64,000 nucleotides of DNA, from the NCBI GenBank assembly GCA_017436645.1, contig JAFSCR010000012.1, positions 1,123 to 65,122 on the forward strand. Reading direction: 5' to 3'. Below, piece after piece: positions 9,303 to 34,288 of this stretch. Source of the stretch: Clostridia bacterium. Its GTDB lineage: Bacteria > Bacillota > Clostridia > UMGS1883 > UMGS1540. The first letter of the stretch is position 1; each line of letters starts with the position of its first letter. A model generated the notes under the pieces. It had not been told where the DNA came from and did not search any database. It saw only the letters and a list, made by a program, of their open reading frames with translations. A program made the position numbers and the translations under genes.

Positions 9303-9348
9303 GTTTTCTCATCTCTTTCTCAAAATCTCTTTTTGTAAGTTCAAATTT

Positions 9349-11174: not shown

Positions 11175-11203
11175 GGGATGTACAAACATTTAGGAGGTCA
11201 TTT

Positions 11204-11677: not shown

Positions 11678-11692
11678 TCAAGTATGCAAAAA

Positions 11693-11723
11693 GGGTCTGT
11701 AAATTTATTTACAGACCCTTTTT
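11693..11723 (+). terminator. rho-independent terminator (GGGTCTGTAAAT/ATTTACAGACCC + TTTTT)
   Basis: perfect stem followed by a T-run immediately after the stop of 11204..11677. Confidence 0.6.
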
Positions 11724-11981
11724 AGGGGATAGGAAAAAATGTTCAGAATGGACAAACTGAGCCAAAGCCACAGGCTTTGGGATACCCGAAAGCGTACATT
11801 GGTACGCTGAGCGGCGAAGTTTGTTTCATAGCAAAAAGGCATATATAAAAAGAAAAACTTCAATTATTTGAAGTTTTTCTTCATTTTAGCTAAAACGTTT
11901 GTTTGTAGCGAGCTTTCTTTTGCTGTCCTTTCCGCCTTTTTGCGGTCTGGACTTTTTTTACAGCCCCTTTATCATTTCTTC

Positions 11982-12749: not shown

Positions 12750-12761
12750 TTGTATTTTCTC

Positions 12762-13112
12762 CTAAAAGCCGTCAAGACCAAAGCTGATTTCCAGCGCATC
12801 ATTTACCTTATGCATCATTGTATCATCCAGATGCCCGATTTTTTCCTTCAGCCGCTTTTTGTCAATGGTCCGCACCTGCTCGAGCAGCACTACGGAATCT
12901 CTCGAAAGGCCGTAGTCACGGGCATCAATTTCAATATGCGTGGGAAGTTTTGCTTTGTTAATCTGGCTTGTAATTGCCGCCGCAATCACGGTGGGGCTAT
13001 AGCGGTTGCCCACGTCATTCTGGACCACCAGCACCGGGCGAACGCCCCCTTGCTCCGAACCGATTACGGGACTTAAGTCTGCGTAATAAATATCGCCTCT
13101 TTTTACAATCAC
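12762..13112 (-). CDS. mazF: type II toxin endoribonuclease MazF/EndoA (PemK family)
   Basis: near-identity in pattern to B. subtilis EndoA: [33 protein letters not shown]...KLPTHIEID. Confidence 0.9.
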
Positions 13113-13375
13113 CCTAGATTCTCCTCATACCTCAGCATGGTTTCGGTATCAGCACAGTGACAGGCACGGGCAATTTCTAAGTTTATCTCACCCATCTCCC
13201 GATAACCCTGTTCCATTTGGAGGCGAATCTTTTCTTTTCGCTTTTCGTCCATATAGAACCGCATGGCCCGGCGGACGAATTCACTTCTCGTGATTTCCTC
13301 CGTCTCCAATAATGCATCTACTTCCGCCAGGAATGCTGTGGGTAGGCTGACCAATATTTTTTTCTTGTCTGCCAT
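13109..13375 (-). CDS. mazE: antitoxin MazE/EndoAI (RHH)
   Basis: ORF track 13109..13414; start at MADKKKIL; [24 protein letters not shown] matches the EndoAI C-terminus; 4-nt overlap with mazF. Confidence 0.8.
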
Positions 13376-13509
13376 ATTACCAAGCCTCCATTCGTCATGT
13401 GTATCTATACACATTATAAAACTTTCCGAGGGCCGAAGTCAAATGTAATTTCTGCCACATAGACCGCTTGGTAAAAGACTACGGTTCTATTTTGCACAAA
13501 AAAATCAAT

Positions 13510-14958: not shown

Positions 14959-14982
14959 AAAACCACCCTTTCGTAAAATGAA

Positions 14983-15396
14983 TTATTCTGTAAGAGAAGA
15001 TGTGCAATGGGGGCAACGGGTTGCCTCGATTGCAACTGTGCTGCAGCAGAAGGGGCACTTCTTCGTTGTCACTTCTTCCACAACTTCTTCCTTTTTCTTG
15101 CCGAGTGCGGAAAGTGCATTGAGGGCCTTTACCAGCACGAAGATTACGAATGCCATAATGATAAAGTTAATTATGGCAGTCAGGAATGAACCGTAAAGAA
15201 TATCAACGCCAAGTACCTTTACGGAAAGGGCAGAAAGGTCCTTGTTTGCTATAAGGCCGATAACGGGGGAAATAACGTCCTTTACAAGAGAATCCACGAT
15301 ACCCTTGAAAGCACCACCGATAATAACACCGACTGCCAGATCCATAACGTTTCCACGCATGGCGAAATCTTTAAATTCTTTCAAAAACTTTTTCAT
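14983..15396 (-). CDS. mscL: large-conductance mechanosensitive channel MscL with C-terminal Cys4 zinc-ribbon tail
   Basis: ORF track 14983..15474; start [34 protein letters not shown] (canonical MscL N-terminus); C-terminus [18 protein letters not shown]. Confidence 0.8.
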
Positions 15397-15409
15397 TTGC
15401 TTTTTCTCC

Positions 15410-15808
15410 TTATTCTTCTGTTTTTTCTTCTTCCTCTTCCTGTGCGGTCTCTTTTTCAATATGAATGCCGTCAATATGAATATTGACCTTTTCTACAGAA
15501 AGACCTGTAAGGGACTCCACTTCGTCCTTTACCTTTTCCTGAATCTTCCATGCAACGTCAGGAATCCGTGCGCCGTAACGAACGATAATGTGCATGTCAA
15601 TCACGGCTGTACCGTCACTGATTTCCACCTTCACGCCACGGGAAACGGATTTTTTGCTGCCCAGAAGCTCTGCAATGCCGCCTGCAAAAGAATTGCTCAT
15701 GCCGTAAACGCCTTCGATTTCGCCTGCGGCAATGCCTGCAATAATCTGCACAACATCATCGGAAATTTTTACGCTGTTTGTATTCTCAAGTGTTTTGTTT
15801 TCTTCCAT
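15410..15808 (-). CDS. Asp23/Gls24 family envelope stress protein
   Basis: 132 aa, typical Asp23 features ([22 protein letters not shown]), acidic C-terminal tail. Confidence 0.75.
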
Positions 15809-15901
15809 TTTTATACCTTCCTTTCCGAAAGTTTATTCCGTATTTATTATAACAAACGCCGTCCCCATTTGCAAGCATTTTCTATTTCTTTTAGAAATTG
15901 G

Positions 15902-15930
15902 TTGACATTCTCGTTTCCCTATGATAGAAT
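15902..15930 (+). promoter_or_regulatory. sigma-70-like promoter TTGACA-17-TAGAAT driving the TPP riboswitch/thiT
   Basis: consensus -35, 17-nt spacer, near-consensus -10. Confidence 0.5.
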
Positions 15931-15937
15931 AAAACCA

Positions 15938-16030
15938 TAAATCCGGGGAGCTCGAAAGGGCTGAGAGGAAGCGCTCGCTTCGACCCGTAAACCTGATTTG
16001 GGTAATGCCAACGAAGGAAGGATATCGTTT
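15938..16030 (+). promoter_or_regulatory. TPP (THI-box) riboswitch
   Basis: GGGGAGCTCGAAAGGGCTGAGAGG ... ACCCGTAAACCTGATTTGGGTAATGCCAACGAAGG matches THI-element conserved cores (CUGAGA, ACCUGAUcUGGaUAAUGCCAGCGaAGG); followed by a hairpin + U-run attenuator, then the thiT RBS. Confidence 0.8.
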
Positions 16031-16082
16031 TTTTATGCTTCCTCATTTCGGGGAAGCAATTTTTATTTTAAGGAGAAAGTAT

Positions 16083-16625
16083 ATGACGAAAAAACTTACT
16101 ACCACAGGCGTCTTACTGGCACTGAGTCTTGTTTTATCCATGCTTCGCATTTTTGATGCACCTTACGGCGGCAGCGTAACCCCCGCCTCCATGCTGCCCA
16201 TTATTATTCTTTCCCTTCTGTACGGTACAAAGTGGGGGCTCCTTACAGGCACCGTATTTGCAATCCTTTCCATGCTTCTTACAGGCTTTCCCGCACCGCC
16301 CGTGGGAAACGCCGCCTCATACCTTCTCGTATTCTTCCTCGATTATATTCTGGCCTTCGGATTTTTAGGTCTTGCGTCCTTCTTCTATAAGCTTTACGGC
16401 AAAAAGCCCCTCTCCATTCCCCTTTCGGCCGCCACGGTTATTTTCCTTCGGTTTTTATGCCACTTTGCCTCGGGAATTCTTATATGGAGCGCATACGCCT
16501 GGGAAGGCTACGGCGCCGCCGCCTATTCCTTCCTCTATAATGGCAGTTATATGCTCTTTGAGCTTCTTATCACGACTGCCGCCGCTTTTGCCGCAAGAAA
16601 CTTTATAAGTAAACTTTTGAAATAG
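16083..16625 (+). CDS. thiT: thiamine ECF-transporter S component ThiT-like membrane protein
   Basis: ORF track 16005..16625; start at MTKKLTT with AAGGAGAAAG RBS; ~180 aa, 6 TM; directly controlled by the TPP riboswitch. Confidence 0.7.
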   Translation: MTKKLTTTGVLLALSLVLSMLRIFDAPYGGSVTPASMLPIIILSLLYGTKWGLLTGTVFAILSMLLTGFPAPPVGNAASYLLVFFLDYILAFGFLGLASFFYKLYGKKPLSIPLSAATVIFLRFLCHFASGILIWSAYAWEGYGAAAYSFLYNGSYMLFELLITTAAAFAARNFISKLLK

Positions 16626-16631
16626 AAAAAC

Positions 16632-16661
16632 GCTTTCGGGGTTCTCCCGAAAGCTTTTTTT
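16632..16661. terminator. bidirectional terminator hairpin (GCTTTCGGGG-TTCT-CCCGAAAGC + T7)
   Basis: perfect stem and T-run between convergent thiT and the MFS gene. Confidence 0.6.
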
Positions 16662-17907
16662 ATTGAATCTCTTTTTCTCCTATGAAGGCAGTCCACTTTC
16701 GCATCATACCTGCCGCCAAAAGTGTGGCCGCCAGAATGAAGCCTATCCAAAAAAGAACAATGCTTGACCATGACATACTTTCCGACATTTTCGGAATGAC
16801 ATAGGATGCAAAAATATTTCCCACGGCTGCCGCACCGTTTAAAATGCCGGATACGGTGCCGTTTCTTCCGCAATCGGAAAATCTTGCCGCCGCAAAAGAA
16901 TTGGAAAACGGATAGGCGCCATGTATAAACAAAGCCCCCACCGCCAAAACCGCCAAAATGATAAGATAGGATATTTTTCCTACAAAACATGTTACGAAAA
17001 GTGCAGGCAGACTCAACGCCAGCAAAAGCATAATTGCTTTCATTTCGTGCTGTGTCACTTTTGTACGGACAAAGTTTGCAACAAACATACCGAGGGTTGA
17101 AAAGACAACCAGCAAAACACTGAGTCGTGTTGCGATTGCCGCCGGCATATTGTGGTATGTTTCCGTCAGCATAACAGGCGTAACCATTTTAATGCCGTTG
17201 TTTATTGTAACAATCAGAAACGCTATCAGCGCCAAAACGGGGAATCCCGAAAGACGAACAAGGGATTTCATATCCGCTTTATTTTCATGTTTTTTACCCT
17301 CTTTCCCGCTCGCCGCTGTGTTTTCCACCATGCTTTTTTCTATGGTTTTATAAAATACTGCCCAAAAAACCAGCATGACGGTAAGTGACACCGCAGAAAC
17401 CACAAAGTTTTGCTCCCATCTTTTGACAAGGGAGGCAACAAAAAGACTGAGTGCCTGCCCAGCGCTGTTGGAAAGAATAACCCAGAAGACTGCGGTCCCC
17501 CGAATCGCAGGTGCCGTTTGTGAGGAAACAATTTTAAACACACCGGGCCAAAGGCCAAACTGGAACGCAGCATTCAGGCACCATACGACCATGATAACCG
17601 TATAACTTTGGTTTACGGAAATAATGAGATTTGAGATAATGCCGCTTACAAGGCCAATGCCAATGAGCCGAAACGGCGAAAACTTATCTGCCGCAAATCC
17701 GCCGAAAATCTGGAAGATGGCATACACAAACCAGAAGCTTGCGCTTATGGCACCGGTCTGGGCTTTCGTCATAACCCCTTCTTCCACAATGGTAGCCATG
17801 GCCGCCGAGAACATGTTCTTTGTCATATAAACCGTGGCATTCACGATAAATAACGCCAGAAACAACGCAATGCTCAGCTTTTCATTTTTTAAGTATTTGT
17901 TATGCAC
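16660..17907 (-). CDS. MFS transporter (12 TM), probable sugar/oligosaccharide permease of the downstream operon
   Basis: 415 aa, multiple TM helices, MFS-type loop motifs; last gene of the minus-strand kinase-isomerase-paralog-paralog-MFS cluster. Confidence 0.7.
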   Translation of the reverse strand: MHNKYLKNEKLSIALFLALFIVNATVYMTKNMFSAAMATIVEEGVMTKAQTGAISASFWFVYAIFQIFGGFAADKFSPFRLIGIGLVSGIISNLIISVNQSYTVIMVVWCLNAAFQFGLWPGVFKIVSSQTAPAIRGTAVFWVILSNSAGQALSLFVASLVKRWEQNFVVSAVSLTVMLVFWAVFYKTIEKSMVENTAASGKEGKKHENKADMKSLVRLSGFPVLALIAFLIVTINNGIKMVTPVMLTETYHNMPAAIATRLSVLLVVFSTLGMFVANFVRTKVTQHEMKAIMLLLALSLPALFVTCFVGKISYLIILAVLAVGALFIHGAYPFSNSFAAARFSDCGRNGTVSGILNGAAAVGNIFASYVIPKMSESMSWSSIVLFWIGFILAATLLAAGMMRKWTAFIGEKEIQ

Positions 17908-17990
17908 ATTACATCCCCTATTCCTCTATGTATTCGTCTGCAGGATAAGGTTTAAAATATGTCGATGGATGTCCCATCGGCATTTTTTTA

Positions 17991-19481
17991 TTATTCTGTA
18001 AACAGTTTGTTTATTTCTGTAATGGTTTTGCGGGTAAGCAGGTTGCCGCCCTCATACCCTGTGTCACCGCTTGCAATATATGCGCTGAAGTGACCGTGTT
18101 CTTCCGCCTTTTTCGTGGCAAGATAGGCGTGGGAGCCACAAGCAAGCTGTACAATAAACGTCTGCCGTGCAAGGCTTCTTGCCTTCATTACGTTTGCATA
18201 ATCCTGATAAAGTTCATAAGGATTTGTGGCAAATGCCACGTCACCAAAACGGACGAAATGACACTCGATGGGCACAACCTCTTCCGTCTGCTGGCGGCGG
18301 AATCTGGCAATGGTGCCTGTGTGGATGTACGTTTTCGCATTATCCTCAAAATCAAAGTCCCTGTCCTTATTCTTTTCAACATACGCCTCGATTGCCCGCA
18401 CCGCTTCTTCGTAATCTCCAAGGGTAGCTTTCCGAAGGGGCATATCCATATGTGTTACCGTGTGCCTGAAAACCGCCTCGGATTTATATTCCGTAATTTC
18501 TTCAAAAACGGAAATGATTTCATTGGAAATACGTCTTCCCACTTTATTACAGCCGCTTATGTCAAACATAGAGGGGTCTGCTTTTCTTTCGATATAGTTG
18601 GGGCGGCTGACGTGGGGATCGCATATAGGCGTTTCGGGGTTTACCCACCTTACAAGGTCACGGGGGCACTGGTCACCTGCCGCGCCGCAAAGAGCGAGAA
18701 GGTGAATGTCCTGCCCGAATTTTTCACGAAGGTTTGCTTTTGCCCTTCCCCAGAAGTCTGCGGAAATAAAGCTTCTCTGCTCTAAGATTTGTGCAGGGCA
18801 GGCAATGTTTGCCACAATGCCCGTAAGCTTTTTATTTTTATCAAAGGTGTAGATAAGTTCTATGCCCGAATCGTTTCCGCCTTCAAGGGAAATAAAGTTT
18901 GCGCTGTTTGTATCGCCCCACATCTTAGCTGTGCCGTCATTATAGCACACTCTTCTGTTCATCCCCACGGGTGCTCTGCCGAATTCGTTTGCATAAAGGG
19001 CTTCGCTTCTTCCCTTCCACGCCCTATCTGCCGCAAGGGCAATTTTATCCGTTAAAAGTTCAAACCCTTCTTCAGGGGATAAAACCGTTTCGTCCGTTTG
19101 CACACGGGCAATGTATTTCCTGCCTTCCGGCAAAAATTCTTCTAAAATACGGGCAGTGGACGAAACAGCAAACTGTGCGCCTCTGTCCCCGATTTCAAGT
19201 GAGGTATGGGTGTGGGTGGCACAAATGATAATTTTCTCCGGGTCCACCTCTTCGTTCATTTCGGCAAACTTTTCTCTCGCCGCCAAAACCACCGAATCCT
19301 TCGCTTCCCCCGTATCGCAGGAAACGATAATCATTTCCTCTCCGTCCGCTTCTACCGCCATTGCCGTTACGGAAATTTCGGATTCCACAAATTCGGAAAT
19401 TCTTTCATAGAACTGCCCTGCAAGGCTTACTTTTTTTTCGGGCACAAGGCTCTCTTCTGCCCAGCCGATTAAAATGCTCAT
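17991..19481 (-). CDS. neutral/alkaline ceramidase-like metallohydrolase family protein, tandem paralog A
   Basis: ORF track 17991..19721; start reset to MSILIGWAEESL (GGAGG RBS) because the 80-codon N-terminal extension would overlap paralog B. ATHTHTS metal-binding-like motif. Confidence 0.55.
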   Translation of the reverse strand: MSILIGWAEESLVPEKKVSLAGQFYERISEFVESEISVTAMAVEADGEEMIIVSCDTGEAKDSVVLAAREKFAEMNEEVDPEKIIICATHTHTSLEIGDRGAQFAVSSTARILEEFLPEGRKYIARVQTDETVLSPEEGFELLTDKIALAADRAWKGRSEALYANEFGRAPVGMNRRVCYNDGTAKMWGDTNSANFISLEGGNDSGIELIYTFDKNKKLTGIVANIACPAQILEQRSFISADFWGRAKANLREKFGQDIHLLALCGAAGDQCPRDLVRWVNPETPICDPHVSRPNYIERKADPSMFDISGCNKVGRRISNEIISVFEEITEYKSEAVFRHTVTHMDMPLRKATLGDYEEAVRAIEAYVEKNKDRDFDFEDNAKTYIHTGTIARFRRQQTEEVVPIECHFVRFGDVAFATNPYELYQDYANVMKARSLARQTFIVQLACGSHAYLATKKAEEHGHFSAYIASGDTGYEGGNLLTRKTITEINKLFTE

Positions 19482-19539
19482 ATTTTCCTCCAAATAAGGT
19501 TTTAAAATATGCCGACGGAAATCCGTCGGCATATTCTTA

Positions 19540-21027
19540 TTATTCTGTAAACATCTTATTGATTTCTGTAATGGTTTCACGGGTGAGAAGGTCGCCGCCT
19601 TCGTGGCCGGTGTCACCGCTTGAGATGTAGGCACTGTAGTGGCCGCCCTTTTCTGCCTTTTCTGTGGGCAGGTAGCCGTGAGAACCGCAGGCAAGCTGCA
19701 CGATAAATGTCTGGCGTGCAAAGCTTCTTGCCTTCATAACGTTTGCAAAATCCTGGAAGAGTTCATAGGGGTTTGTTGCAAAGGCTACATCGCCGAAACG
19801 AACAACGTGGTACTCAATGGGTACAACTTCTTCCTTCTGCTGGCGGCGGAACCGGGCAATGGTGCCGGTATGTACGTGCATCTTCGCATTATCTTCGAAG
19901 TTAAAATCCTTGTCGCCATTCTTTGCAATATAATATTCCAGTTCACGTACAGCGTGGTCGTGCTCCGCAATGGTTGCCTTGCGAAGGGGTACTTCAAGGT
20001 CAATAACCTTGTGTTTAAAGACAGCTTCACTCTTATATTCCGTAATTTCTTCAAAAACAGAAATAATCTCGTTAGAAATACGCTTACCGACTTTATTGCA
20101 GCCGCTTACGTCATACATAGACGGGTCTGCTTTTCTTTCGATGTAGTTGGGGCGTTTTACGTTGGGGTCGTCAATAGGTGTTTCGGGGTTTACCCATCTT
20201 ACAAGGTCACGGGGGCACTGGTCACCGCCTGCGCCGCAAAGGCCGAGAAGGAAAATATCATCGCCGAATTTTGCTCTGAGGTTTGCCTTGGTTCTGCCCC
20301 AGAAGTCTGCAGAAATAAAGCTTCTCTGCTCTAAAATCTGTGCAGGGCAGGCAATGTTTGCAACAACACCCGTAAGCTTCTTATTGGTATCAAAAGTGTA
20401 AATAAGTTCAACGCCGGAGTCATTACCGCCTTCAAGGGAAATGAAGTTTGCGGTATTGGTATCACCCCACATCTGGGCGGAGCCGTCATCATAGCAAACA
20501 CGGCGGTTCATGCCGACTGCTACTCTGCCGAATTCGTTAGCATATAACGCTTCTTTTCTGTTTTTCCAAGCTTTGTCTGCCGCAAGGGCAATTTTATCTG
20601 TGATAAGTTCAAGGCCTTCTATGGGGGTGAGAACCGTTTCATCAGGTGTTACCAGTTCTTTGTATCCCTTGCCTTCCGGTAAAAACTCTTGTAAAATCTG
20701 TGCCGGCACGGAGAATTCGCGTGCAGTGCCGGTTCCCACTTTAATGGAAGTGTGGGTGTGGGTTGCACCAACGATAATTTTTCTCGGGTCAACTTCCGTG
20801 TTCAGCTTTGCAAACTTTTCACGGGCAATGCGCATAACGTGGTCACCAACGTTTACAACGTCGGCACTTGCCATAATCATGTAGTCGCCGTCTGCTTCCA
20901 CCGCCATTGCCGTTACGGAAATTTCGGATTCCACATACTCGGAAATTCTTTCAAAGAACTGACCTGCAAGGCTTACCTTTTTCTCGGGCACAAGGCTCTC
21001 TTCTGCCCAACCGATTAAAATACTCAT
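19540..21027 (-). CDS. neutral/alkaline ceramidase-like metallohydrolase family protein, tandem paralog B
   Basis: 495 aa, same start MSILIGWAEESLVPEKKVSLAGQF as paralog A; collinear, high identity throughout. Confidence 0.55.
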   Translation of the reverse strand: MSILIGWAEESLVPEKKVSLAGQFFERISEYVESEISVTAMAVEADGDYMIMASADVVNVGDHVMRIAREKFAKLNTEVDPRKIIVGATHTHTSIKVGTGTAREFSVPAQILQEFLPEGKGYKELVTPDETVLTPIEGLELITDKIALAADKAWKNRKEALYANEFGRVAVGMNRRVCYDDGSAQMWGDTNTANFISLEGGNDSGVELIYTFDTNKKLTGVVANIACPAQILEQRSFISADFWGRTKANLRAKFGDDIFLLGLCGAGGDQCPRDLVRWVNPETPIDDPNVKRPNYIERKADPSMYDVSGCNKVGKRISNEIISVFEEITEYKSEAVFKHKVIDLEVPLRKATIAEHDHAVRELEYYIAKNGDKDFNFEDNAKMHVHTGTIARFRRQQKEEVVPIEYHVVRFGDVAFATNPYELFQDFANVMKARSFARQTFIVQLACGSHGYLPTEKAEKGGHYSAYISSGDTGHEGGDLLTRETITEINKMFTE

Positions 21028-21042
21028 TTTTTCTTCCTCCTG

Positions 21043-22392
21043 TTATCTGATAATCTGAATGCCTAAAATATCGCAAAGGTTTTCAATAACCTCTGTGTTA
21101 TCGCCATAGGAAATAATGTAGTGCTGGCACATAACGTTTTCTGCAAAGGCTTCCACGTCGTCCAGAAGAATTTCAAGACCGGGCAGCTGGGGTGCAGGCT
21201 GTGTCCAGCCGGCTTCTTCCCATTTCCGGGGGCTGATGCCTTCGCCACGAACCATGTGCATATAGTACTGACCGTCGTCGAAAGTGAGGCGACACATAGT
21301 AAGGGGACCGGGTTTTACTTTACTTACGTTTAAGATACCTTCGGAAAGTTCACCGAATGCCGCAGGCATAACGGTAACGCCGCCATCGGTTACTTCTGCC
21401 GGTACATAGTCGGGAACACCTGCCAGCACTCTGTCTTCAAAGAATTCATAAAATTCAAGATAGAATGCACACTGACCGGTCAGATATTTTACCATAAGCT
21501 GGGTGATATTGCCGAGAGAGTCATTTTCAGGAATGGTGCAAAGGCCTTCTTCGTCAGAAAGAAGCATAAAGATAGGTGCCGGCGGGAAACCGAGAAGTTT
21601 TTTCATGCCATCAACGTCTTTTAAGGAAATGGCATCGTATCCTCTTTCACGGCAGATATCACGAACAGCAAGATAGTATCCTGCTGCTTTTTTCATGCTT
21701 TCCGGGTTTGCAGGCTTTAAGAAGTTCCATTTTGCCATGCACTTGTCAATGACGGCCTGTTTTTCTTCGTCTGTAATCTTCTGGTAGCGCTGCTCCATTT
21801 CCAGCATTTCAAAGGTTTCAATTTCGGGGCCGATTTCACGCTTTAAGGAGCCGCCGTCAAACTGGGTGCCGTAAAGATTCATATCACGGTAGCCTGCCAT
21901 GCCGCTTCTTGCGTGGCGGAGCTTTGCGGCCGCCGCTGCAGCTACGCAGTAGTTATATACCTTCTTCGTCTTGGACGGAAGACCGATAATATCATATATG
22001 TACTTAAAGTCGTACCCGAGGTCATAGAAGGTCTTTCGGATTGCGGTGGTGCCTGCCTGATCAGCTGTTGTGACGATTCTGCCGTCTTCCATCCAGCCGC
22101 AAAGGCCCCAGAGGACCATAGGCTTATTTCTGAAATGCTCCGTCACCTTTACAACCGCATGGGTGGGAATCCAGCCTGCGATGCAGACAACCAGCACGTC
22201 AAAGTCATCCTTTTTAAGGGCTTCCACTGCTTTTTTAATGTCCTTTTCTTCGTAATCGTCGGTTACGGGGTAAACGCTGACAAGGTCAAGGCCTTCCTTC
22301 CCCAGAGCTTCCGCCGCATCGGTACATTTTTTGAGAATGATTTCTGCCGGGGTGTTTACTTCGCCGAAACCTACAAAACCTGCTTTAATCAT
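21043..22392 (-). CDS. L-fucose/L-arabinose isomerase family protein (COG2407-like sugar isomerase)
   Basis: 449 aa; N-terminal Rossmann-like MIKAGFVGFG and general isomerase family architecture; tight coupling with the FGGY kinase upstream (3-nt gap). Confidence 0.45.
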   Translation of the reverse strand: MIKAGFVGFGEVNTPAEIILKKCTDAAEALGKEGLDLVSVYPVTDDYEEKDIKKAVEALKKDDFDVLVVCIAGWIPTHAVVKVTEHFRNKPMVLWGLCGWMEDGRIVTTADQAGTTAIRKTFYDLGYDFKYIYDIIGLPSKTKKVYNYCVAAAAAAKLRHARSGMAGYRDMNLYGTQFDGGSLKREIGPEIETFEMLEMEQRYQKITDEEKQAVIDKCMAKWNFLKPANPESMKKAAGYYLAVRDICRERGYDAISLKDVDGMKKLLGFPPAPIFMLLSDEEGLCTIPENDSLGNITQLMVKYLTGQCAFYLEFYEFFEDRVLAGVPDYVPAEVTDGGVTVMPAAFGELSEGILNVSKVKPGPLTMCRLTFDDGQYYMHMVRGEGISPRKWEEAGWTQPAPQLPGLEILLDDVEAFAENVMCQHYIISYGDNTEVIENLCDILGIQIIR

Positions 22393-27990: not shown

Positions 27991-28374
27991 ATGCAAAAAC
28001 GAAGTCGGCAACGTGAGCTTCTTCTGGAAATTCTTTGCGGCACCACCTGTCATCCGGATGCGGACTGGGTCTTTTCCAAAATGCGGGAGAAAATGCCGAA
28101 TGTGTCCTTAGGCACCGTATACCGCAATCTTGCCCGTCTTTCCGAAGAAGGCGTTATTCTGAAGCTGGATGTAGGGCAAGGTGCGGATAGGTTTGACGGC
28201 TGCAATGACCCCCATTACCATCTGGCCTGCCGCTGCTGTGGCGCCGTAGTAGATGTGCCCATGGCATACACCCCGGCATTAAATGATACGGCAAAAAAAG
28301 AAAGCGGCTGTGAAATTGAAAGTCACTCCCTTTTGTTTTTCGGTAAATGCCCGTCCTGTACGGGAATAAAATAA
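27991..28374 (+). CDS. perR: Fur-family peroxide-responsive repressor (PerR-like)
   Basis: 127 aa; Fur-family layout with C-terminal CxxC...CxxC structural zinc site; directly upstream of rubrerythrin. Confidence 0.7.
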   Translation: MQKRSRQRELLLEILCGTTCHPDADWVFSKMREKMPNVSLGTVYRNLARLSEEGVILKLDVGQGADRFDGCNDPHYHLACRCCGAVVDVPMAYTPALNDTAKKESGCEIESHSLLFFGKCPSCTGIK

Positions 28375-28408: not shown

Positions 28409-28951
28409 ATGAAAAAATTTGTATGTGCAATCTGTGGTTATGTTCACGAAGGCAATGAAGCCCCTGCCGCTTGCCCCCAGTGCAAAGCGCCGGCTTCTAA
28501 ATTCTCCGAGCAGGCAGGCGAAAAATCCTGGGCTGCAGAACATATTGTAGGCGTAGCAAAAGGTGTAGACCCCGAAATCATCGAAGGTCTCCGCATGAAC
28601 TTTACAGGTGAATGCACCGAAGTCGGCATGTACCTTGCCATGGCAAGAGTTGCCCATCGTGAAGGCTATCCCGAAATCGGTCTTTACTGGGAAAAGGCAG
28701 CTTATGAAGAAGCCGAACACGCTGCAAAGTTTGCAGAACTTCTCGGCGAAGTTGTAACCGACAGCACAAAGAAAAACCTGGAACTTCGCATTGACGCCGA
28801 AAACGGCGCAACACAGGGTAAATTTGACCTTGCAAAACGTGCAAAAGAACTGAATCTCGACGCTATTCACGACACCGTTCATGAAATGGCAAGGGATGAA
28901 GCAAGACATGGCAAGGCTTTCGAGGGACTTTTGAAGAGATATTTTGGTTAA
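28409..28951 (+). CDS. rbr: rubrerythrin-family protein with N-terminal rubredoxin-like CxxC...CxxC domain (reverse rubrerythrin)
   Basis: ORF track 28382..28951; start [15 protein letters not shown]... with GGAGGAATGAAAGT RBS; ferritin-like ExxH di-iron motifs ([22 protein letters not shown]). Confidence 0.8.
28895..28951 (+). repeat. direct repeat copy 1 (native rbr 3' end, encodes [18 protein letters not shown]-stop)
   Basis: 57-bp segment repeated at 30348-30404 and 34010-34066 with synonymous differences. Confidence 0.8.
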
Positions 28952-28978
28952 TCTAAAATGTTGAAATAACAACACTTA

Positions 28979-29034
28979 AAAACCCCTTAACAGTAGGCAT
29001 TACCTATTGTCAAGGGGTTTAATTTTTATATTTT
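28979..29034 (+). terminator. terminator hairpin after rbr (AAACCCCTTAACA...TGTCAAGGGGTTT + T-rich)
   Basis: 13-bp imperfect inverted repeat followed by AATTTTTATATTTT. Confidence 0.4.
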
Positions 29035-29092
29035 CAAAATGGTTATTCAAATTGTGGTTGAAATCTCAACATTACAGTAAAATTGATGTTCA

Positions 29093-29232
29093 AACTGGCA
29101 ACAACTGGCGTTTTGAAGGTCATTTAAATAGTATTTTAGATACAACTGGCAACAAATTGCCGGTTAATCTCTTGAAAGTCTTGTCCTGCAAGGGTTTGAT
29201 GGTTGTTATAGAAGCAAATTTTGTTGCCAGTT
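29093..29232. repeat. three copies of 12-mer AACTGGCAACAA (two direct, one inverted); candidate arm-type recombinase or regulator binding sites
   Basis: AACTGGCAACAA at ~29093 and ~29144, TTGTTGCCAGTT at ~29221; also palindrome GTTGAAATCTCAAC at ~29057. Confidence 0.5.
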
Positions 29233-29325
29233 GCACACACTTTATGAAGTTAATTTATATAAACATATTTACATAATAGATAATTTAAGGTATAATTATA
29301 AAAAAATAAATTTGGAGGACTTTTT

Positions 29326-30273
29326 ATGAATAAGTCAGTAAAAATATTATCAATTATTTCTATTATACTTTCTCTCATAGGTGTTTTACTTGCTACAGCA
29401 ATTTTGACATTTCTTTGGGAGCCGATTAATGTTTTGTTAAATAGTCCTGAAGTTATTGCAAAAGCTACACCTATCATTCCAAGAGGAAATATGGTATATA
29501 TATTAGGATGTGTTATTATTTCTTTAGTTCTTCTTGCGAGTTATAAATCAAGAAAGTTTATTGTAATTGAGATTTTATCAATAGTTTTCTTAAGTTTTCT
29601 TCTTCCTTGTTTAACTTATAGACTTGAATTGAATCAAACTATGCTGGTAGGACATACTATGGGTAGCAATTCTATAGCTATCTTAGGGACTGCAAATAGT
29701 ATAATGGCTATTCCAGTAGGTTTTGTAAACTTGTCCGTTGCATTGAGCTTGATAACAAGCGGAATTAGAATTATAGAAAAAGTTTTTTCGAACAAGAAAA
29801 TACCGATTAATGTATTATCAATAATTTCGGTAATTATTTCTGCTATTTCATTTTTGATTTCGATAGCTGTATTAACAATCTTCTGGGAACCAATGGTTTC
29901 ACTCTATGTTTCCTCAGTTGATATTATTAATTACCGACCGATTTTACCTATTGGAAGTGTTTTATACATAGTTGCTTGCTTAATTATCTCGATTATTCTT
30001 GTAATTAGCAAAAAATCAAATGGATCTTTTGCAATTGAGATTATCACAATGTCATTGTTGGGCTTCGGAGTTCCGGTTTTGATGTGGATTTTAAATTTGG
30101 TGCAACAATTTAACGTAAACGCTATTGGCGTCAGTGCTGTAACAGAATTTCTTATATCAAACAAGGTGCTTGTATCTTCAATTGGTATTATGAAATTATC
30201 TTCAGCTATATGCTTGGTGGTTTGTGGAATGCGAATAGCATACAAAAACAATTATAAAAAAACAATGCAGTAA
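29326..30273 (+). CDS. integral membrane protein with internal tandem duplication (2 x ~155 aa), unknown function
   Basis: halves align: VKILSIISIILSLIGVLLATAILTFLWEPINVLL...PIIPRGNMVYILGCVIISLVLLASYKS versus INVLSIISVIISAISFLISIAVLTIFWEPMVSLY...PILPIGSVLYIVACLIISIILVISKKS; RBS GGAGGA. Confidence 0.6.
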   Translation: MNKSVKILSIISIILSLIGVLLATAILTFLWEPINVLLNSPEVIAKATPIIPRGNMVYILGCVIISLVLLASYKSRKFIVIEILSIVFLSFLLPCLTYRLELNQTMLVGHTMGSNSIAILGTANSIMAIPVGFVNLSVALSLITSGIRIIEKVFSNKKIPINVLSIISVIISAISFLISIAVLTIFWEPMVSLYVSSVDIINYRPILPIGSVLYIVACLIISIILVISKKSNGSFAIEIITMSLLGFGVPVLMWILNLVQQFNVNAIGVSAVTEFLISNKVLVSSIGIMKLSSAICLVVCGMRIAYKNNYKKTMQ

Positions 30274-30347
30274 ATGGCTATTGATAAAAATTAGTCCACG
30301 TTGAATTTACAGCAAAAAACTGATAAATTCAATTTGATAATAACTAT

Positions 30348-30404
30348 GACGAAGCTCGTCACGGCAAGGCATTCGAAGGTCTTTTAAAGAGATACTTTAA
30401 GTAA
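30348..30404 (+). repeat. direct repeat copy 2 (encodes [18 protein letters not shown]-stop, AT-rich codons)
   Basis: GACGAAGCTCGTCACGGCAAGGCATTCGAAGGTCTTTTAAAGAGATACTTTAAGTAA. Confidence 0.8.
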
Positions 30405-30473
30405 GATACAAAAACCAACAGGAGCAAAGGCTTTGAGCCTTTGCTCCTTGTCTTTTCCATATATTTGGATTTG

Positions 30474-31010
30474 TTAGTTTAATTTATGCAATAAAAAGTA
30501 AGGTTTCCTTCCCACTTGAATCAAATTTGTCACATCAGAAATATCATAATCGTTCTTTTTATACACTTGCAAAAATTCCTGTTCGCTTGAATAAATCATT
30601 TCTTGTCCATACCACGATTTAGATGATTGCGGAGTAAGCTCTAAATATACTGCTTTACCTTCTGCAACAAATGTAAGTATTGTATGTACTTTGTTTTTCT
30701 TCTTGTTATATATTAACCATATTTTATTCGAAACACTTAGATTATCAAGAATTGATTTCATTACTACGACAGCATCTACACAGGTCCCGATTTTTTCCTT
30801 CAGCGTGACAGACGGATCTTGAACCGTGTAAATCGTTTTAGAAAAATGATCGTATTCTTTGTCAAAACCCTTATCCATGTTTGGCTTGTATTTTTTACCT
30901 TCCACAATAAAGCCATATTCAAAACCGTTGTTATATAATTCCGCCCGCAGTATATCACATATTTCTTTGATGCTCATTTTTGTATTTTCCCCGTCCATGT
31001 TTATATTCAA
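30474..31010 (-). CDS. hypothetical protein (178 aa), possible Cys/His hydrolase fold
   Basis: ORF in island 2 on the opposite strand; contains GTCVDAVVVM (Cys) and KVHTILTF (His) about 37 aa apart, loosely papain/NlpC-like spacing; no firm family assignment. Confidence 0.4.
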   Translation of the reverse strand: MNINMDGENTKMSIKEICDILRAELYNNGFEYGFIVEGKKYKPNMDKGFDKEYDHFSKTIYTVQDPSVTLKEKIGTCVDAVVVMKSILDNLSVSNKIWLIYNKKKNKVHTILTFVAEGKAVYLELTPQSSKSWYGQEMIYSSEQEFLQVYKKNDYDISDVTNLIQVGRKPYFLLHKLN

Positions 31011-31180
31011 ACCGCTTTTATGCCTTCAGTATATCATAAGTGCGCTGCTATTTCAATACAGATCATGGTGTTTTGTCTACTTAAAACTAAAAAATATATC
31101 ATGTAAAAGAAAATGGTGAAATGCTGGCACACAAAATCTCCTATTTTTATTTAACTTTCTTAAGCCTTTGCGAAAATATA

Positions 31181-31209
31181 TTGAATTTATATGATGTTTG
31201 TGTTATAAT
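31181..31209 (+). promoter_or_regulatory. promoter TTGAAT-17-TATAAT upstream of the XRE-Fic-DUF262-HEPN cassette
   Basis: near-consensus hexamers with 17-nt spacer about 30 nt before the XRE gene. Confidence 0.45.
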
Positions 31210-31242
31210 ATAGAATAATGAATTATAATTGAGGTGACCATT

Positions 31243-31452
31243 TTGACTATATCTTATAATAAGCTATGGAAATTATTGATAGATAAAAAACTAAGTAAGG
31301 TTGCCTTGCGTAAAAATGCCGATATTGCACCAAATACAATGACAAAGTTACGGCGAGATGAGCCGGTTTCTATGTTGATACTTTTAAAAATAGCTGAATA
31401 TCTGGAATGTGATATAAGTGATATGTGTGAATTTGTAAAGGAGGAAAAGTAA
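31243..31452 (+). CDS. XRE-family helix-turn-helix DNA-binding protein (Cro/CI-type)
   Basis: ORF track 31234..31452 (GTG); TTG at 31243 has better RBS spacing (GAGGTGA). HTH_3/HTH_26-like LSKVALRKNADIAPNTMTKLRRDE; stop 1 nt before the Fic start. Confidence 0.65.
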   Translation: MTISYNKLWKLLIDKKLSKVALRKNADIAPNTMTKLRRDEPVSMLILLKIAEYLECDISDMCEFVKEEK

Positions 31453-31453
31453 T

Positions 31454-32182
31454 ATGAACTTTGAGAGAATACAAAAAAAGAAACTTAAATACGAACAAAA
31501 CAAGCATAAGATAAGTCCGATTACTTTATCTTCCTACGAAAAAGATTTTGAGCTTACTTTTACTCACAATTCAACTGCTATTGAAGGAAACACTCTGACT
31601 CTCATGGAAACAAAAGTTGTTTTGGAAGACGGAGTTGCAATAGGCGGAAAAGAGCTTCGTGAAATATACGAGGTTATTAATCATAAAAAAGCATATGGTT
31701 ATGTAAAAAAATGCATTGCAGAAAAGAAACCCATAGATGAGAATATCGTTAAAGACCTACATGCAATACTTACAGAAAATATAATAGTTGGCGGTATATA
31801 CAGGAATGAAGAAGTTCGTATAAGCGGTGCGGGATTTACACCTCCTGCCGGAAACGAAATGTATATGCAGATTAAAAAGTTCTATGAAGATTTAAAAATA
31901 AAAGAAAAAGAATTAAACACGATAGAACTTGCTGCATGGACACATGCTGAGTTTGTACGAATTCACCCATTTGTTGACGGTAACGGAAGAACAGGCCGCC
32001 TGATTATGAATTATCAGCTTTTGCTTAACGGATACCTGCCCGTTTCTGTTGCCAAGGAAAATAGACTTGAGTACTATAATGCGCTTGAACAATATGCAGT
32101 AAATGGAGATTTGGCTGTTTTTGCGGACTTCGTTGCAGAATTAGAAGAAGTGCAGTTAGATGAATACATGAAATTGATGTAA
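31454..32182 (+). CDS. Fic/Doc family protein (Fido domain), class II with N-terminal inhibitory motif
   Basis: active-site HPFVDGNGRTGR fits HxFx(D/E)GNGRxxR; inhibitory-helix motif STAIEG fits (S/T)xxxE(G/N) about 40 aa from the N-terminus. Confidence 0.85.
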   Translation: MNFERIQKKKLKYEQNKHKISPITLSSYEKDFELTFTHNSTAIEGNTLTLMETKVVLEDGVAIGGKELREIYEVINHKKAYGYVKKCIAEKKPIDENIVKDLHAILTENIIVGGIYRNEEVRISGAGFTPPAGNEMYMQIKKFYEDLKIKEKELNTIELAAWTHAEFVRIHPFVDGNGRTGRLIMNYQLLLNGYLPVSVAKENRLEYYNALEQYAVNGDLAVFADFVAELEEVQLDEYMKLM

Positions 32183-32239
32183 TACGTCTGGAATAATAAT
32201 ATAGTTTGAGTAATATAATATTAGGAGGAAAACATAAAC

Positions 32240-33394
32240 ATGGATACTAATTGGTATGTAGATTATAATGATGATATGGAGGAAAGCGTGAAAGAATACG
32301 ATATAACAGCGACTCCAAACGATTTTAATATTATGACAATTTTTAGTTTGATTGATAATGGAGTAATTAAAATGCCTCCATTTCAACGCAATTATGTATG
32401 GGATGAAAAAAGGGCATCTAAACTCATAGAGTCTATTATATTAGGATTGCCGGTTCCTCAAGTATTTTTATATGAACAGGATAAAAATAGCTTTTATGTC
32501 ATTGATGGTCAGCAACGCCTTTTATCAATATACTTTTTCATAAAACAAAGATTTCCAACAAAAGAGGGAAAAGTAGCTCTCAGGCAATATCTTATGGGGG
32601 ATACAAAGATTAATGATGAGATTTTGGCTGACGATAAACTTTTTAGAAACTTCAAACTCAGATTACCTGCTTTAGCAAACGAGGAACAAAACAAATTTGA
32701 TAAATTAAAATACGACCAATTGGGTGATTATAAAAATACATTTGAAATAATGAGAACAATACGTTCAGTTGTTATTAAGCAAAACGAACCAGATGACGAT
32801 TCTTCTATTTATGAGATATTTAATAGGTTAAATACCGGCGGGCAGAATCTATCTCCTCAGGAAATAAGAATGAGTTTATATTATTCAGAATTCTACAAAG
32901 AACTGATTCATTTAAACGAAAATCCTGTATGGAGAAAATTTTTAAGAAGAGATGTTTGTGATGTTCATTTTAAAGATGTTGAGATATTGCTACGTGCATT
33001 CGCAATGTTGTTAGAATACAAATCATATCGTTCTCCTATGGGTAAATTTCTTAACACATTCTCAAAAAAGACAAGTAATTTTAAAAGTGAAACATTAAGC
33101 TATTTATCGTCGTTGTTTTTATCATTCTTAGATAGTTGTAAAAATTTAGATGATAATATTTTCTGTACAAAAAATGGACAGTTTGCAATTTCTTTGTTTG
33201 AGGCGGTATTTGTCGCTGCATGTTACAAATGTTTGGAAGAGAAGAAGACCTTAGACGGAAATCTTAGTCAAGATAGCATTTTAGAATTAAAAGAAAATAA
33301 AAAGTTTATAGACTCAAATCAAGGCAGTGTTGCCTCAAAAACAAACTTAACAACACGAATCGAAAAAGCAATTGAGATAATTAAGTTTGAATAG
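32240..33394 (+). CDS. DUF262 (ParB/Srx-like nuclease-fold, GmrSD N-terminal-type) domain protein
   Basis: hallmark motifs PFQRNYVWD and DGQQRL in the first 100 aa; 384 aa; no DUF1524/HNH C-terminal partner domain recognised. Confidence 0.75.
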   Translation: MDTNWYVDYNDDMEESVKEYDITATPNDFNIMTIFSLIDNGVIKMPPFQRNYVWDEKRASKLIESIILGLPVPQVFLYEQDKNSFYVIDGQQRLLSIYFFIKQRFPTKEGKVALRQYLMGDTKINDEILADDKLFRNFKLRLPALANEEQNKFDKLKYDQLGDYKNTFEIMRTIRSVVIKQNEPDDDSSIYEIFNRLNTGGQNLSPQEIRMSLYYSEFYKELIHLNENPVWRKFLRRDVCDVHFKDVEILLRAFAMLLEYKSYRSPMGKFLNTFSKKTSNFKSETLSYLSSLFLSFLDSCKNLDDNIFCTKNGQFAISLFEAVFVAACYKCLEEKKTLDGNLSQDSILELKENKKFIDSNQGSVASKTNLTTRIEKAIEIIKFE

Positions 33395-33404
33395 GAGGTT
33401 TTTT

Positions 33405-33923
33405 ATGTCATCTCCTATTCAAAAATTTATTGAAGATTATAAGAATTTAAATAATTTTCTTATTTCGAATGGACAAATTTCATCTTCGGTAGATATAAAT
33501 GAACATTACAGAAAAATTCTTCTATTATCCTGTGCCAGTTATTATGAAACGCAGATAATTGATATTTTGAAAGCGTTTGTAAAACTAAATTCTACTGACG
33601 ATAGAATATTTTCGTTTATGAATAATAAAGCTATTCAACGGCAGTATTATACATATTTTGATTGGGATCAAACAAGTAATATAAATAAATTTTTAGGAAT
33701 GTTTGGTGAAGAATTCAAAACAACGATTTCGAACGAAATAAAGAGAAATAATGATTTAACATTGCAAGTAAAAGCTTTTCTTGAAATAGGTTCAGAAAGA
33801 AATAAAATGGTTCATAGGAATTTTTTGGAATATAAACTTGATAAAACATTTGATGAAATTACAGAGCTACATAATAAAGCACAATTATTTATAGAGTATA
33901 TAAGACAAAAATTATGCGATTAA
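33405..33923 (+). CDS. HEPN-like protein (Rx4H motif, MAE_28990/Abi-like), putative RNase partner of DUF262
   Basis: ORF track 33387..33923; start MSSPIQKF with AGGAGG RBS 6 nt upstream, 10 nt after the DUF262 stop. Candidate HEPN motif ERNKMVHRNF (R-x4-H) near the C-terminus; all-helical character. Confidence 0.5.
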   Translation: MSSPIQKFIEDYKNLNNFLISNGQISSSVDINEHYRKILLLSCASYYETQIIDILKAFVKLNSTDDRIFSFMNNKAIQRQYYTYFDWDQTSNINKFLGMFGEEFKTTISNEIKRNNDLTLQVKAFLEIGSERNKMVHRNFLEYKLDKTFDEITELHNKAQLFIEYIRQKLCD

Positions 33924-34009
33924 ATTTTCTTGCATAATTTTACAAAATATGCTATAATAAAACTATAAAACAGATGCAACGACAAAAGACTTTTTGATTG
34001 GACCTCTGT

Positions 34010-34066
34010 GACGAAGCTCGACACGGTAAGGCATTCGAAGGTCTTTTAAAGAGATACTTTGGTTAA
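34010..34066 (+). repeat. direct repeat copy 3 (encodes [18 protein letters not shown]-stop)
   Basis: GACGAAGCTCGACACGGTAAGGCATTCGAAGGTCTTTTAAAGAGATACTTTGGTTAA; immediately followed by the RBS of the bfd-like gene. Confidence 0.8.
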
Positions 34067-34084: not shown

Positions 34085-34288
34085 GTGGAAAACTATATGG
34101 TTTGTAACTGCAAACAGGTAAGTCATTTTGACATTGTGGATGCTATGCAGAAAAGCACACACTTTGATGATGTGCTCCTCGCTTTTGAGGATGTGCAGAA
34201 GCTGACAAACTGTTCTACCGGTTGCGGCGGATGTTATCCCAAGGTTCTGGATATTATTTCTGAAATCATGCAGGGAAATGTTCGTTAA
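34085..34288 (+). CDS. BFD-like [2Fe-2S]-binding domain protein (bacterioferritin-associated ferredoxin-like)
   Basis: GTG start with AAGGAGG RBS; Cys pattern CxC...CxxC (MVCNCKQV...CSTGCGGC) typical of BFD-like domain; 67 aa. Confidence 0.65.
   Translation: MENYMVCNCKQVSHFDIVDAMQKSTHFDDVLLAFEDVQKLTNCSTGCGGCYPKVLDIISEIMQGNVR

Follow-up and report, generated by a model that had tools for sequence, protein, structure and literature searches.

A probable tandem array of two integrase-less elements at the 3' end of a rubrerythrin gene in a Clostridia bacterium

Cis-mobilizable elements (CIMEs) retain the attachment (att) sites attL and attR, but the genes for integration and transfer are absent (PMC5704250). 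At the 3' end of fda in S. thermophilus, the site of the ICESt1/ICESt3 family, CIMEs are found together with tandem accretion of elements (PMC5704250). The integrative and mobilizable elements (IMEs) of Firmicutes integrate site-specifically into the 3' ends of genes, often in tandem with decayed elements (PMC5704250). In Dehalococcoides, 15 of the 31 islands specific for ssrA are without an integration module (PMC3146451), and in the tycheposons of Prochlorococcus, successive integrations are separated by partial copies of the target gene (bioRxiv 10.1101/2020.12.28.424599). The locus considered here is the region downstream of the rubrerythrin gene (rbr) of a Clostridia bacterium. It lies in a stretch of 64,000 nucleotides (assembly GCA_017436645.1, contig JAFSCR010000012.1, positions 1,123 to 65,122 of the forward strand), called the window below and numbered from its own first letter; the loci compared with it are cited by L numbers. 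The region is quite probably a tandem array of two att-flanked elements without integrases, E1 and E2, inserted by a tyrosine recombinase into the 3' end of rbr, CIME-like and either decayed or consisting of cargo only.

An earlier note, made from the sequence alone, had pointed to three direct copies of the end of rbr, and alignment and translation confirm them. Each copy comprises 57 nt, the last 18 codons of rbr plus the stop codon, and successive copies are spaced 1453 and 3662 bp apart. The genes and copies that frame the array are:

27991-28374, + strand: gene of a Fur/PerR-family regulator, host gene 5' of rbr (Pfam FUR, E 1.9e-22)
28409-28951, + strand: rbr, intact rubrerythrin gene, 180 aa (Pfam RUBY_RBDX and Rubrerythrin)
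28895-28951, + strand: copy 1, read as attL, the element-borne replacement end fused in frame to rbr (from comparison with L011)
30348-30404, + strand: copy 2, read as a hybrid att site of E1 and E2, the replacement end of E2 (from alignment of repeats and junctions)
34010-34066, + strand: copy 3, read as attR, the displaced native rbr end, now untranslated (2/57 mismatches to L011)
34085-34288, + strand: bfd, BFD-like [2Fe-2S] ferredoxin gene with a GTG start (Pfam Fer2_BFD 1.7e-12)

The three copies encode the same peptide, save that the final G is replaced by K in copy 2 (YFK*). Copies 1 and 2 differ at 13 of the 57 nt, copies 1 and 3 at 10, and copies 2 and 3 at 5; a pair of 57-mers with at least 43 matches would be expected by chance about 8e-5 times anywhere in 9 kb. 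Neither copy 2 nor copy 3 lies within an open reading frame (ORF), and both must be untranslated remnants, since stop codons leave only 8 and 5 open codons ahead of them. Copy 3 is followed, as had been noted, by 18 nt that include AGGAGG and then by the GTG of bfd. The low GC fraction reported for the insert also holds: 0.298 in 28952-30347 and 0.308 in 30405-34009, against 0.475 and 0.506 in the flanks. The copies themselves have GC fractions of 0.40 (copy 1), 0.42 (copy 2), and 0.42 (copy 3), so copies 2 and 3, to which the earlier note ascribed AT-rich codons, are no richer in AT than copy 1. It was correct in seeing those two as closer to each other than to copy 1 but mistaken in taking copy 1 for the native end, as will be seen. 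The structure recurs in no fewer than four metagenome contigs of independent origin; the full arrangement, rbr-E1-E2-bfd, is assembled on contigs of 26-27 kb, and more than one contig spans the whole of it. Because of this recurrence, the array cannot be put down to faulty assembly, the doubt under which the note had left its own proposal.

The empty site that the array presupposes was found on contigs retrieved from public assemblies by exact Rbr and BFD proteins. In L004 (which encodes the identical 180-aa Rbr protein), L009, and L011, rbr is followed after 18 nt by bfd, the host gene that comes right after rbr at unoccupied sites. The most telling is L011, by its identity the same species as the window: the two agree at 251 of the 255 nt that precede the repeat (98.4%) and at 495 of the 500 nt that follow copy 3 (99.0%). 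Its rbr end, GATGAAGCTCGACACGGTAAGGCATTCGAAGGTCTTTTAAAGAGATATTTTGGTTAA, has 2 mismatches in 57 to copy 3, 7 to copy 2, and 8 to copy 1. It follows that copy 3 is the displaced native end and that copy 1 is foreign-borne, the reverse of the earlier assignment. Copy 1 departs from the native end at 8 positions, every one of them synonymous (P about 5e-6), which means that the replacement end evolved as coding sequence, as would be expected of an end that is translated whenever its element integrates. The unoccupied site in relatives (L011 and L009, with flanks 98-99% identical) and the Rbr reading frame kept intact by an end that the element supplies go together with direct repeats at the boundaries that correspond to the 3' end of the target gene.

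The point of exchange can be read from the same comparison. At attL the sequence is native through GAT and that of the element after GAAGC, while at attR it is that of the element through GAC and native after GAAGC. Since the two sites switch between native and foreign on either side of these 5 bp, exchange would have taken place within GAAGC, which in copy 1 lies at 28898-28902 (in the Asp-Glu-Ala codons; the Glu-Ala of DEARH). The 5' edge of copy 2 is a palindrome, TGACGA-AGC-TCGTCA. Copies 1 and 2 are each followed by a hairpin terminator of their own, whereas copy 3 leads into the native ribosome-binding site of bfd. Because each element-borne end thus precedes its own terminator, the units run from about 28895 to 30347 (E1) and from about 30348 to 34009 (E2), and not, as first proposed, over 28952-34066 with a copy at the right end of each element. 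This is the layout of classical integration into the 3' end of a gene, with a surrogate end supplied by the element.

Two of the contigs compared carry rbr genes that are peculiar in other ways. In L009 (1-470), the end of another rbr-like gene (..ARYFG*) lies 150 nt upstream of rbr, and rbr itself is a mosaic, divergent and richer in AT over its 5' 300 nt or so and close to the window in its 3' part, which suggests that some strains have tandem rbr paralogs or have recombined within the gene. L010 (1-50) has a hybrid rbr end, GCAAGACA (like copy 1) joined to CGGTAAGGCATTCGAAGG... (like copy 3), with bfd directly after it. This could be the scar left when copies 1 and 3 recombined homologously and the array was lost, or perhaps another native allele.

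What enzyme might have acted at this site? Four of 80 species-representative rbr loci (L015, L016, L024, and L059) have another rbr end, a truncated one, 3-9.5 kb downstream of the gene. A tyrosine integrase of 405-424 aa adjoins the displaced end in L016 and L024, and L059 has a truncated integrase remnant. (L061 was set aside: a related integrase lies downstream of rbr, but there is no distal copy of the rbr end within 10 kb.) When metagenome contigs were scanned for junctions of the attR type, L099 came up. In it the order is Fur, rbr, replacement end, terminator, Rep (Rep_OBD and superfamily 3 helicase), a 319-aa recombinase, and an integrase of about 445 aa, after which comes the distal junction, ..CTTTGTGAC/GAAGCTCGTCAC.. 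(slashes mark the borders of sites). This integrase belongs to a family of about 443 aa with 364 database relatives at E<=1e-20. The three relatives whose context was retrieved all lie in elements of 5-6.5 kb right after rbr (L107, L108/L109, and L112), with Fur directly upstream of rbr wherever the contig reaches that far; the element of L108/L109 carries HTH_26, Viral_Rep, a Mob_Pre relaxase, and the integrase. Indeed, Fur-rbr is the constant left context of all occupied sites seen (e.g., L099, L108, L112, and L115).

The junctions of these elements tie them to the window. Their attR junctions read TATGAC, TTATGAC, or TGTGAC and then GA(A/G)GC, and they agree in position, to the nucleotide, with those at copies 2 and 3. 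The right end of E1, CTATGAC, precedes copy 2, and the same junction occurs in the integrase-bearing L107, L110, and L112 (TTATGAC in L108); the right end of E2 is CTGTGAC, before the GAAGC of copy 3. Thus CTATGAC/GAAGC and CTGTGAC/GAAGC coincide to the nucleotide with attR of integrase-bearing elements, and the sequence around the exchange point, TGAC then GAAGC, is intact at both junctions of the window. The integrases that share this junction are 51-71% identical to one another and 33-38% identical to the clade of L016 and L024, which has its junction a few codons farther upstream. Just inside both ends of the integrase-bearing elements are direct repeats of the TTGTGTAAAATGGTGTG type that resemble arm-type sites.

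Three further observations concern these elements. A second gene resembling those of tyrosine recombinases (about 300 aa) lies upstream of Rep or close to it in L099 (8407-9366), L107 (1118-2023), and L112 (7350-8243); its product might serve as a resolvase or a directionality factor, or provide a second specificity. Just past the rbr-specific element of L112, the stretch 11474-21335 holds AbiEii, an unrelated 463-aa integrase, HTH_17 genes, BubE/ThiF/Multi_ubiq genes (Bil-like), Fic_N-Fic, and PIN, so the region downstream of rbr is a larger defense hot spot in that genome. Finally, L107, L111, and L113 were considered as circles and rejected, as they show no terminal overlap, and L113 breaks within the repeats.

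According to the model, the attP of each element would carry surrogate codons for the end of rbr followed by a terminator of its own. Exchange in GAAGC would join the surrogate end in frame to rbr, leaving Rbr at 180 aa, and the previous gene end would be displaced distally as an untranslated remnant. Copy 1 would then be the replacement end of E1, copy 2 that of E2, and copy 3 the native end. The sites may be reconstructed as ..CTATGAC/GAAGC/AAGACAT.. or ..CTGTGAC/GAAGC/TCGTCAC.., with GATGAAGCTCGACAC as the partner attB. The recombinase would come from the integrases of about 443 aa carried by the 5-6.5 kb Rep(+Mob)+Int elements that use the same site in other Clostridia, and movement of E1 or E2 would require such an integrase in trans, or in cis by accretion. 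The predicted circle junctions are ..AATAACTATGAC/GAAGC/AAGACATGGC.. for E1, ..GACCTCTGTGAC/GAAGC/TCGTCACGGC.. for E2, and ..GACCTCTGTGAC/GAAGC/AAGACATGGC.. for both together, and the restored rbr-bfd site would read GATGAAGCTCGACACGG. The order of arrival cannot be deduced, because insertion of E1 into the attL of E2 and insertion of E2 into the attR of E1 yield the same product. In its main lines, this is what the earlier note had suggested, that two elements lie in series at the end of rbr, each with its own replacement end, and are decayed or served in trans; the empty-site alleles and the junction shared with the integrase elements support it. An integrase-mediated origin of the array is what we infer from them.

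If so, the integrase is not at hand. Within 28895-34066, no gene has a recombinase domain by Pfam, PADLOC, or NCBIfam, and in particular there is no Phage_integrase, resolvase, relaxase, or Rep domain, as one expects of a CIME. A phmmer search with four integrases against all window ORFs of at least 80 aa gave nothing at E<=10, and in most of the larger flanking ORFs, what Pfam found was housekeeping genes with some prophage-like ones, and no recombinase. The claim that neither segment encodes an integrase is therefore borne out, and the search for recombinases beyond the insert turned up none among the window ORFs tested. A cognate recombinase beside the att site is found neither in E1, nor in E2, nor among those ORFs, but only in related loci (L099, L107, L108, L112, L016, and L024). 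Without a gene for either an integrase or a relaxase, E1 and E2 are not IMEs. Nor is the array an integron: there is no integrase among the window ORFs tested, and the repeat is a coding gene end with a palindrome of 6-7 bp at its 5' edge. It is no prophage or phage satellite either: Pfam shows no packaging, capsid, or phage-interference domains in the segment, there is no match in IMG/VR, and what matched in the phage collection was bacterial rbr genes or unrelated cargo genes.

Other origins and forms of the elements were sought and rejected. A structured RNA within the segment is not indicated, as Rfam gave only two matches, both below threshold and attributable to chance. For a phage or plasmid origin, blastn of the whole segment gave no support: only DUF262 or Fic genes were matched, over short lengths, and rbr genes in three unannotated 'Bacteriophage sp.' records, of which the two that were inspected hold full-length bacterial rbr genes. 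Pattern scans of IMG/VR for attP or circle junctions and for attR-type junctions had no matches. The cargo of E1 and E2 is not a remnant of an IME backbone so far as tblastn against the compared islands can tell, the sole match being a distant Fic paralog in L112. The ends of E1 and E2 were searched for arm-type repeats common to both, but only the AACTGGCAACAA boxes internal to E1 and the arms of terminators were found. Alleles with E1 only or E2 only did not appear, since exact matches to the E2 genes all co-occur with E1. No tRNA or tmRNA that might have served as the target is present in the window, and a full-text search of the literature found no report of rbr as attB.

The closest parallel is that of the CIMEs at fda. 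Here, too, insertion is at the 3' end of a protein-coding gene, and the duplicated end forms attL and attR; both att sites are kept, while integration and transfer genes are lost or lacking; elements are stacked in tandem at one site; and the history proposed is one of integration, decay, and further integration into a resident att site. The differences are that the target is rbr, that the partners are small Rep(+Mob_Pre)+Int elements rather than integrative and conjugative elements, that E1 and E2 contain no backbone debris, and that the repeat is one of 57 bp with synonymous divergence rather than a short identical one. The ssrA islands of Dehalococcoides share tandem insertion 3' of one gene, direct repeats of its 3' end between islands, cargo that varies with strain, and the mapping of the insertion point by comparison of gene and repeat. 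In their case, however, the target is tmRNA, the repeat is 20 bp, a large serine recombinase lies by attL, and there is no reading frame to restore. IMEs are represented by the integrase-bearing loci, L099, L107, L108, and L112, with a tyrosine integrase and Rep and, in L108, a Mob_Pre relaxase. Tycheposons resemble the array in that older elements are pushed further in, degenerate elements and fragmented integrases are found, and the cargo is adaptive or defensive, but they use tRNA targets, have their own integrase and replication module, and reside in marine cyanobacteria. Integrons share with the locus arrays of short, mostly promoter-poor cargo units between sites of a tyrosine recombinase. 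In the window, by contrast, there is no adjacent IntI gene, attI, or Pc, the sites are copies of a gene 3' end and not attC hairpins, and every unit has its own terminator.

Besides its replacement end, the first element consists of a terminator, a noncoding block, and one gene:

28980-29034, + strand: intrinsic terminator of E1, with 18-nt arms (28980-28997 / 29003-29020) and a T-rich run (inverted repeat, 89% complementary)
29062-29300, + strand: noncoding block of E1; it holds the cargo promoter and three AACTGGCAACAA boxes, of which two are direct and one is inverted
29326-30273, + strand: cargo of E1, a 315-aa polytopic membrane protein with 8 transmembrane segments, made of two homologous units of about 155 aa with about four hydrophobic segments each

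The internal repeat of the membrane protein scores 242 against a shuffle mean of 50 +/- 8. The protein has no match in Pfam, PADLOC, or NCBIfam, and its homologs make up only 5 clusters in 5.8 billion proteins, the most distant 51% identical. That most distant homolog lies directly after Fur-rbr in another species (L114-L118). An alignment of the E1 terminator with the homologous hairpin of L115, read by eye, shows some paired positions changed on both arms. The 238-nt noncoding block is 98% identical to that of the L114-L118 cassette (L115 3303-3539), yet the gene product beside it is just 51% identical to its counterpart in L115, and the DNA to its left 56-76%. The block contains a promoter, TTTACA-17-TATAAT (29268-29296), its three AACTGGCAACAA boxes form a stem of about 18 bp, and its RNA fold z-score is -2.95 (+ strand). 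It has no Rfam match and occurs in no other compared locus outside the E1 family. It could be a cis-acting site, a small RNA, or a recently exchanged module.

The second element is larger:

30420-30448, no strand assigned: terminator hairpin of E2, its stem 13 bp long, T runs being present on both strands (terminator scan and inverted repeat)
30474-30977, - strand: cargo of E2, an enzyme-like conserved hypothetical protein of 167 aa in which Cys66 and His98 are invariant
31243-31452, + strand: cargo of E2, HTH_26 regulator abutting the Fic gene (Pfam HTH_26 2.1e-15)
31454-32182, + strand: cargo of E2, Fic-domain protein (Pfam Fic 7.1e-22)
32240-33394, + strand: cargo of E2, GmrSD_N/DUF262 protein with a DGQQR motif (Pfam GmrSD_N 2.3e-33)
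33405-33923, + strand: cargo of E2, HEPN_RiboL-PSP protein with an Rx4H motif (Pfam HEPN_RiboL-PSP 8.1e-20)
33924-34009, + strand: conserved right-end module of E2, 86 bp, noncoding, with an outward promoter, ending in CTCTGT before the GAC that opens copy 3

Taken together, the cargo of E1 and E2 is likely to be antiphage, and the genes of E2 would most plausibly serve in antiphage defense. The Fic protein matches PADLOC models PDC-S04 (2.6e-44) and SoFic (1.6e-30), and its translation carries HPFVDGNGRTGR, in keeping with the HxFx(D/E)GNGRxxR pattern that marks Fic-type defense candidates. The GmrSD_N protein matches NsnA (1.7e-55) and PD-T4-2_A (2.7e-39); its HEPN partner is recognized by Pfam and by no PADLOC model, so that of the two only the GmrSD_N gene matches PADLOC. 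The two are a candidate two-gene defense pair. The 167-aa protein is predicted to have a papain- or transglutaminase-like fold. Its family is well conserved, the best 120 matches being 65-95% identical and lacking a functional name, and several homologs lie on long contigs; the gene may be an ordinary chromosomal one elsewhere that was captured by E2.

The right-end module has a predicted outward promoter with an extended -10 element (TTGCAT at 33930-33935, 17 nt, and TATGcTATAAT ending at 33958) and continues ...AAAGRCTTTYTGATTGRAYYTCTGT right before the GAC of the next copy of the rbr end. The window, L008, L012, and L115 all have the module, at 86-90% identity, behind cargo genes that differ among the four. 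Its promoter is the only evident one facing bfd, so far as sequence can be read. At empty sites rbr and bfd are presumably cotranscribed. The array would place two terminators between them, and the outward promoter of E2 would probably drive bfd anew, uncoupling it from the operon controlled by Fur/PerR.

A second array exists in the other species. L115 has four copies of the rbr end (at 3144, 4708, 7488, and 8079), each with its own terminator, bounding three cassettes. The first encodes the membrane protein homologous to that of E1; the second, which has the same right-end module as E2, encodes an 81-aa C-terminal remnant of an integrase of the 443-aa family, an AbiLi-like ATPase, and an OLD-type TOPRIM protein; and the third encodes a zinc-ribbon protein. 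The integrase remnant shows that decay in place happens among these elements. Copy 2 of L115 has a degenerate core. A gene like that of E1 also occurs in L119, with no detectable distal copy of the rbr end.

In the species of the window, there are at least five alleles at the rbr site: empty, E1 with E2, E2 without the GmrSD_N-HEPN pair (L008), the L012 type, with different cargo and a right end of the E2 type, and the L003 type. The L008 variant (1380-1540, in the metagenome-assembled genome GCA_045579415.1; compare window 32183-33923) lacks GmrSD_N-HEPN and keeps the promoter module along with the last 25 nt or so of the HEPN gene; it looks like a deletion between short, similar AT-rich sequences. 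L003 (981-1208) encodes the same Rbr protein with a replacement end of a third type; it also has a terminator of its own and an element in which GTGGGCAAA / GCCCACCA boxes are repeated. These boxes recur in L115, where the second cassette has them in its right arm, and they may be arm sites for another integrase subfamily. In L095, E1 is joined to a different rbr allele, so two rbr alleles carry it.

Several facts sit uneasily with insertion of E1 and E2 by an integrase of the 443-aa family. None of that family was found in this organism, of which 64 kb were examined. The reconstructed attP and attB are identical over just the 5 bp GAAGC, and the overlap of tyrosine recombinases is usually 6-8 bp. 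Arm repeats like TTGTGTAAAATGGTGTG are weakly recognizable in E1 and were not recognized in E2. The two elements share no backbone genes with the integrase-bearing elements, so for the window their descent from these by deletion is no more than possible. No circular junction was seen, no restored site derived from this array, and no allele with either element alone, and all four of the contigs with an exact E2 gene also carry E1. Last, the presence of E1 on two rbr alleles fits spread by homologous recombination as well as it fits integration. That observation, the fixed configuration, the mosaic rbr of L009 (divergent in its 5' half and like the window in its 3' half), the failure to find an integrase among the window ORFs tested, the E1-like gene of L119 without its distal copy, and the degenerate core in L115 are all what one would expect if the island had been assembled elsewhere by integrases and, after transformation, transduction, or conjugation, imported ready-made by homologous recombination in the rbr and bfd flanks, this lineage itself having seen no site-specific event and the copies being now inert scars. 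We consider this possible, though rather less likely than not to be the whole account. It explains the arrival of the island and not its structure, and an integrase would still be needed for its origin. Furthermore, the exchange-point sequence remains intact at both junctions of the window, and a right-end module preserved behind four cargos suggests continued selection on the ends. Given the two rbr alleles with E1 and the mosaic in L009, homologous recombination in the flanks is probably a further means by which the array spreads.

Perhaps, instead, E1 and E2 are not products of decay at all. The rbr 3' end might be a cassette platform like that of an integron but without a resident integrase, where satellite cassettes, each consisting of a replacement end, a terminator, defense or membrane cargo, and a right end bearing a promoter, would be taken up, stacked, and swapped in trans through the integrase of small Rep-Mob-Int elements, of which they would be parasites. 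Arrays of two cassettes (the window) and three (L115) in two species, the small size of the cassettes (0.5-3.7 kb, 1-5 genes, several defense-like), the right-end module of about 90 bp kept behind four unrelated cargos, the lack of backbone remnants in E1 and E2, the five or more alleles at the site in one species, and an E1 block conserved at 98% between species that might act in cis would all accord with such a platform. Even so, we think it improbable. The integrase remnant in a cassette of L115 points to decay rather than to a purpose-built satellite, no integrase is linked to the site as it is in integrons, no direct evidence was found that cassettes move or are reshuffled, and the sample is small, with two species. 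Two other explanations deserve much less credence. That the copies arose with no site-specific recombinase, by illegitimate or homology-facilitated recombination anchored in rbr or by local duplication, would suit foreign DNA of low GC and a segment without a recombinase. It is nonetheless very hard to believe, considering that the junctions of the window and of six other loci (L012, L099, L107, L108/L110, L112, and L115) start at the same codon, that the copies are set apart by synonymous changes and are not identical duplicates, and that integrases adjoin the same junction elsewhere. Least credible, indeed practically negligible, is a collapse or chimera in assembly among strains with different rbr ends. 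Short-read contigs do end within the repeats (L006, L007, and L095-L097), but the whole of rbr-E1-E2-bfd was assembled in independent samples, in the contigs of 26-27 kb described above, and differences at 5-13 positions make the copies resolvable.

Elsewhere in the window, a prophage-like cluster occupies the minus strand from about 1667 to 12749 and may continue past the left edge. It includes:

4122-4730, - strand: SU10-type adaptor
4727-5344, - strand: amidase
7376-8296, - strand: Mu gpT-like capsid protein
9349-11019, - strand: SU10/P22-like portal
11982-12749, - strand: LexA-like HTH+S24 repressor

There is no integrase among the ORFs of the cluster that were tested.

The array is of a known kind and calls for no new mechanism; with its empty site and its candidate family of helpers, it is a clear and well-delimited example. 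What is new, to judge by the full-text search, is rbr as a target gene; new as well are the family of integrases and IMEs that uses it and the gathering of defense-type cassettes there. In gut Clostridia, the 3' end of rbr recurs as an attachment site for tyrosine integrases of about 443 aa, a large family borne on very small Rep/Mob elements, and it accumulates integrase-less cassettes of the defense type in at least two species. Repeats of the rbr end may be used as landmarks for strain-variable defense islets in metagenome-assembled genomes, where the islets often break assemblies. For the bacterium itself, the array would amount to a rewiring of an oxidative-stress operon: bfd would be cut off by two terminators from the rbr promoter controlled by Fur/PerR and has probably been handed over to the promoter of an element.

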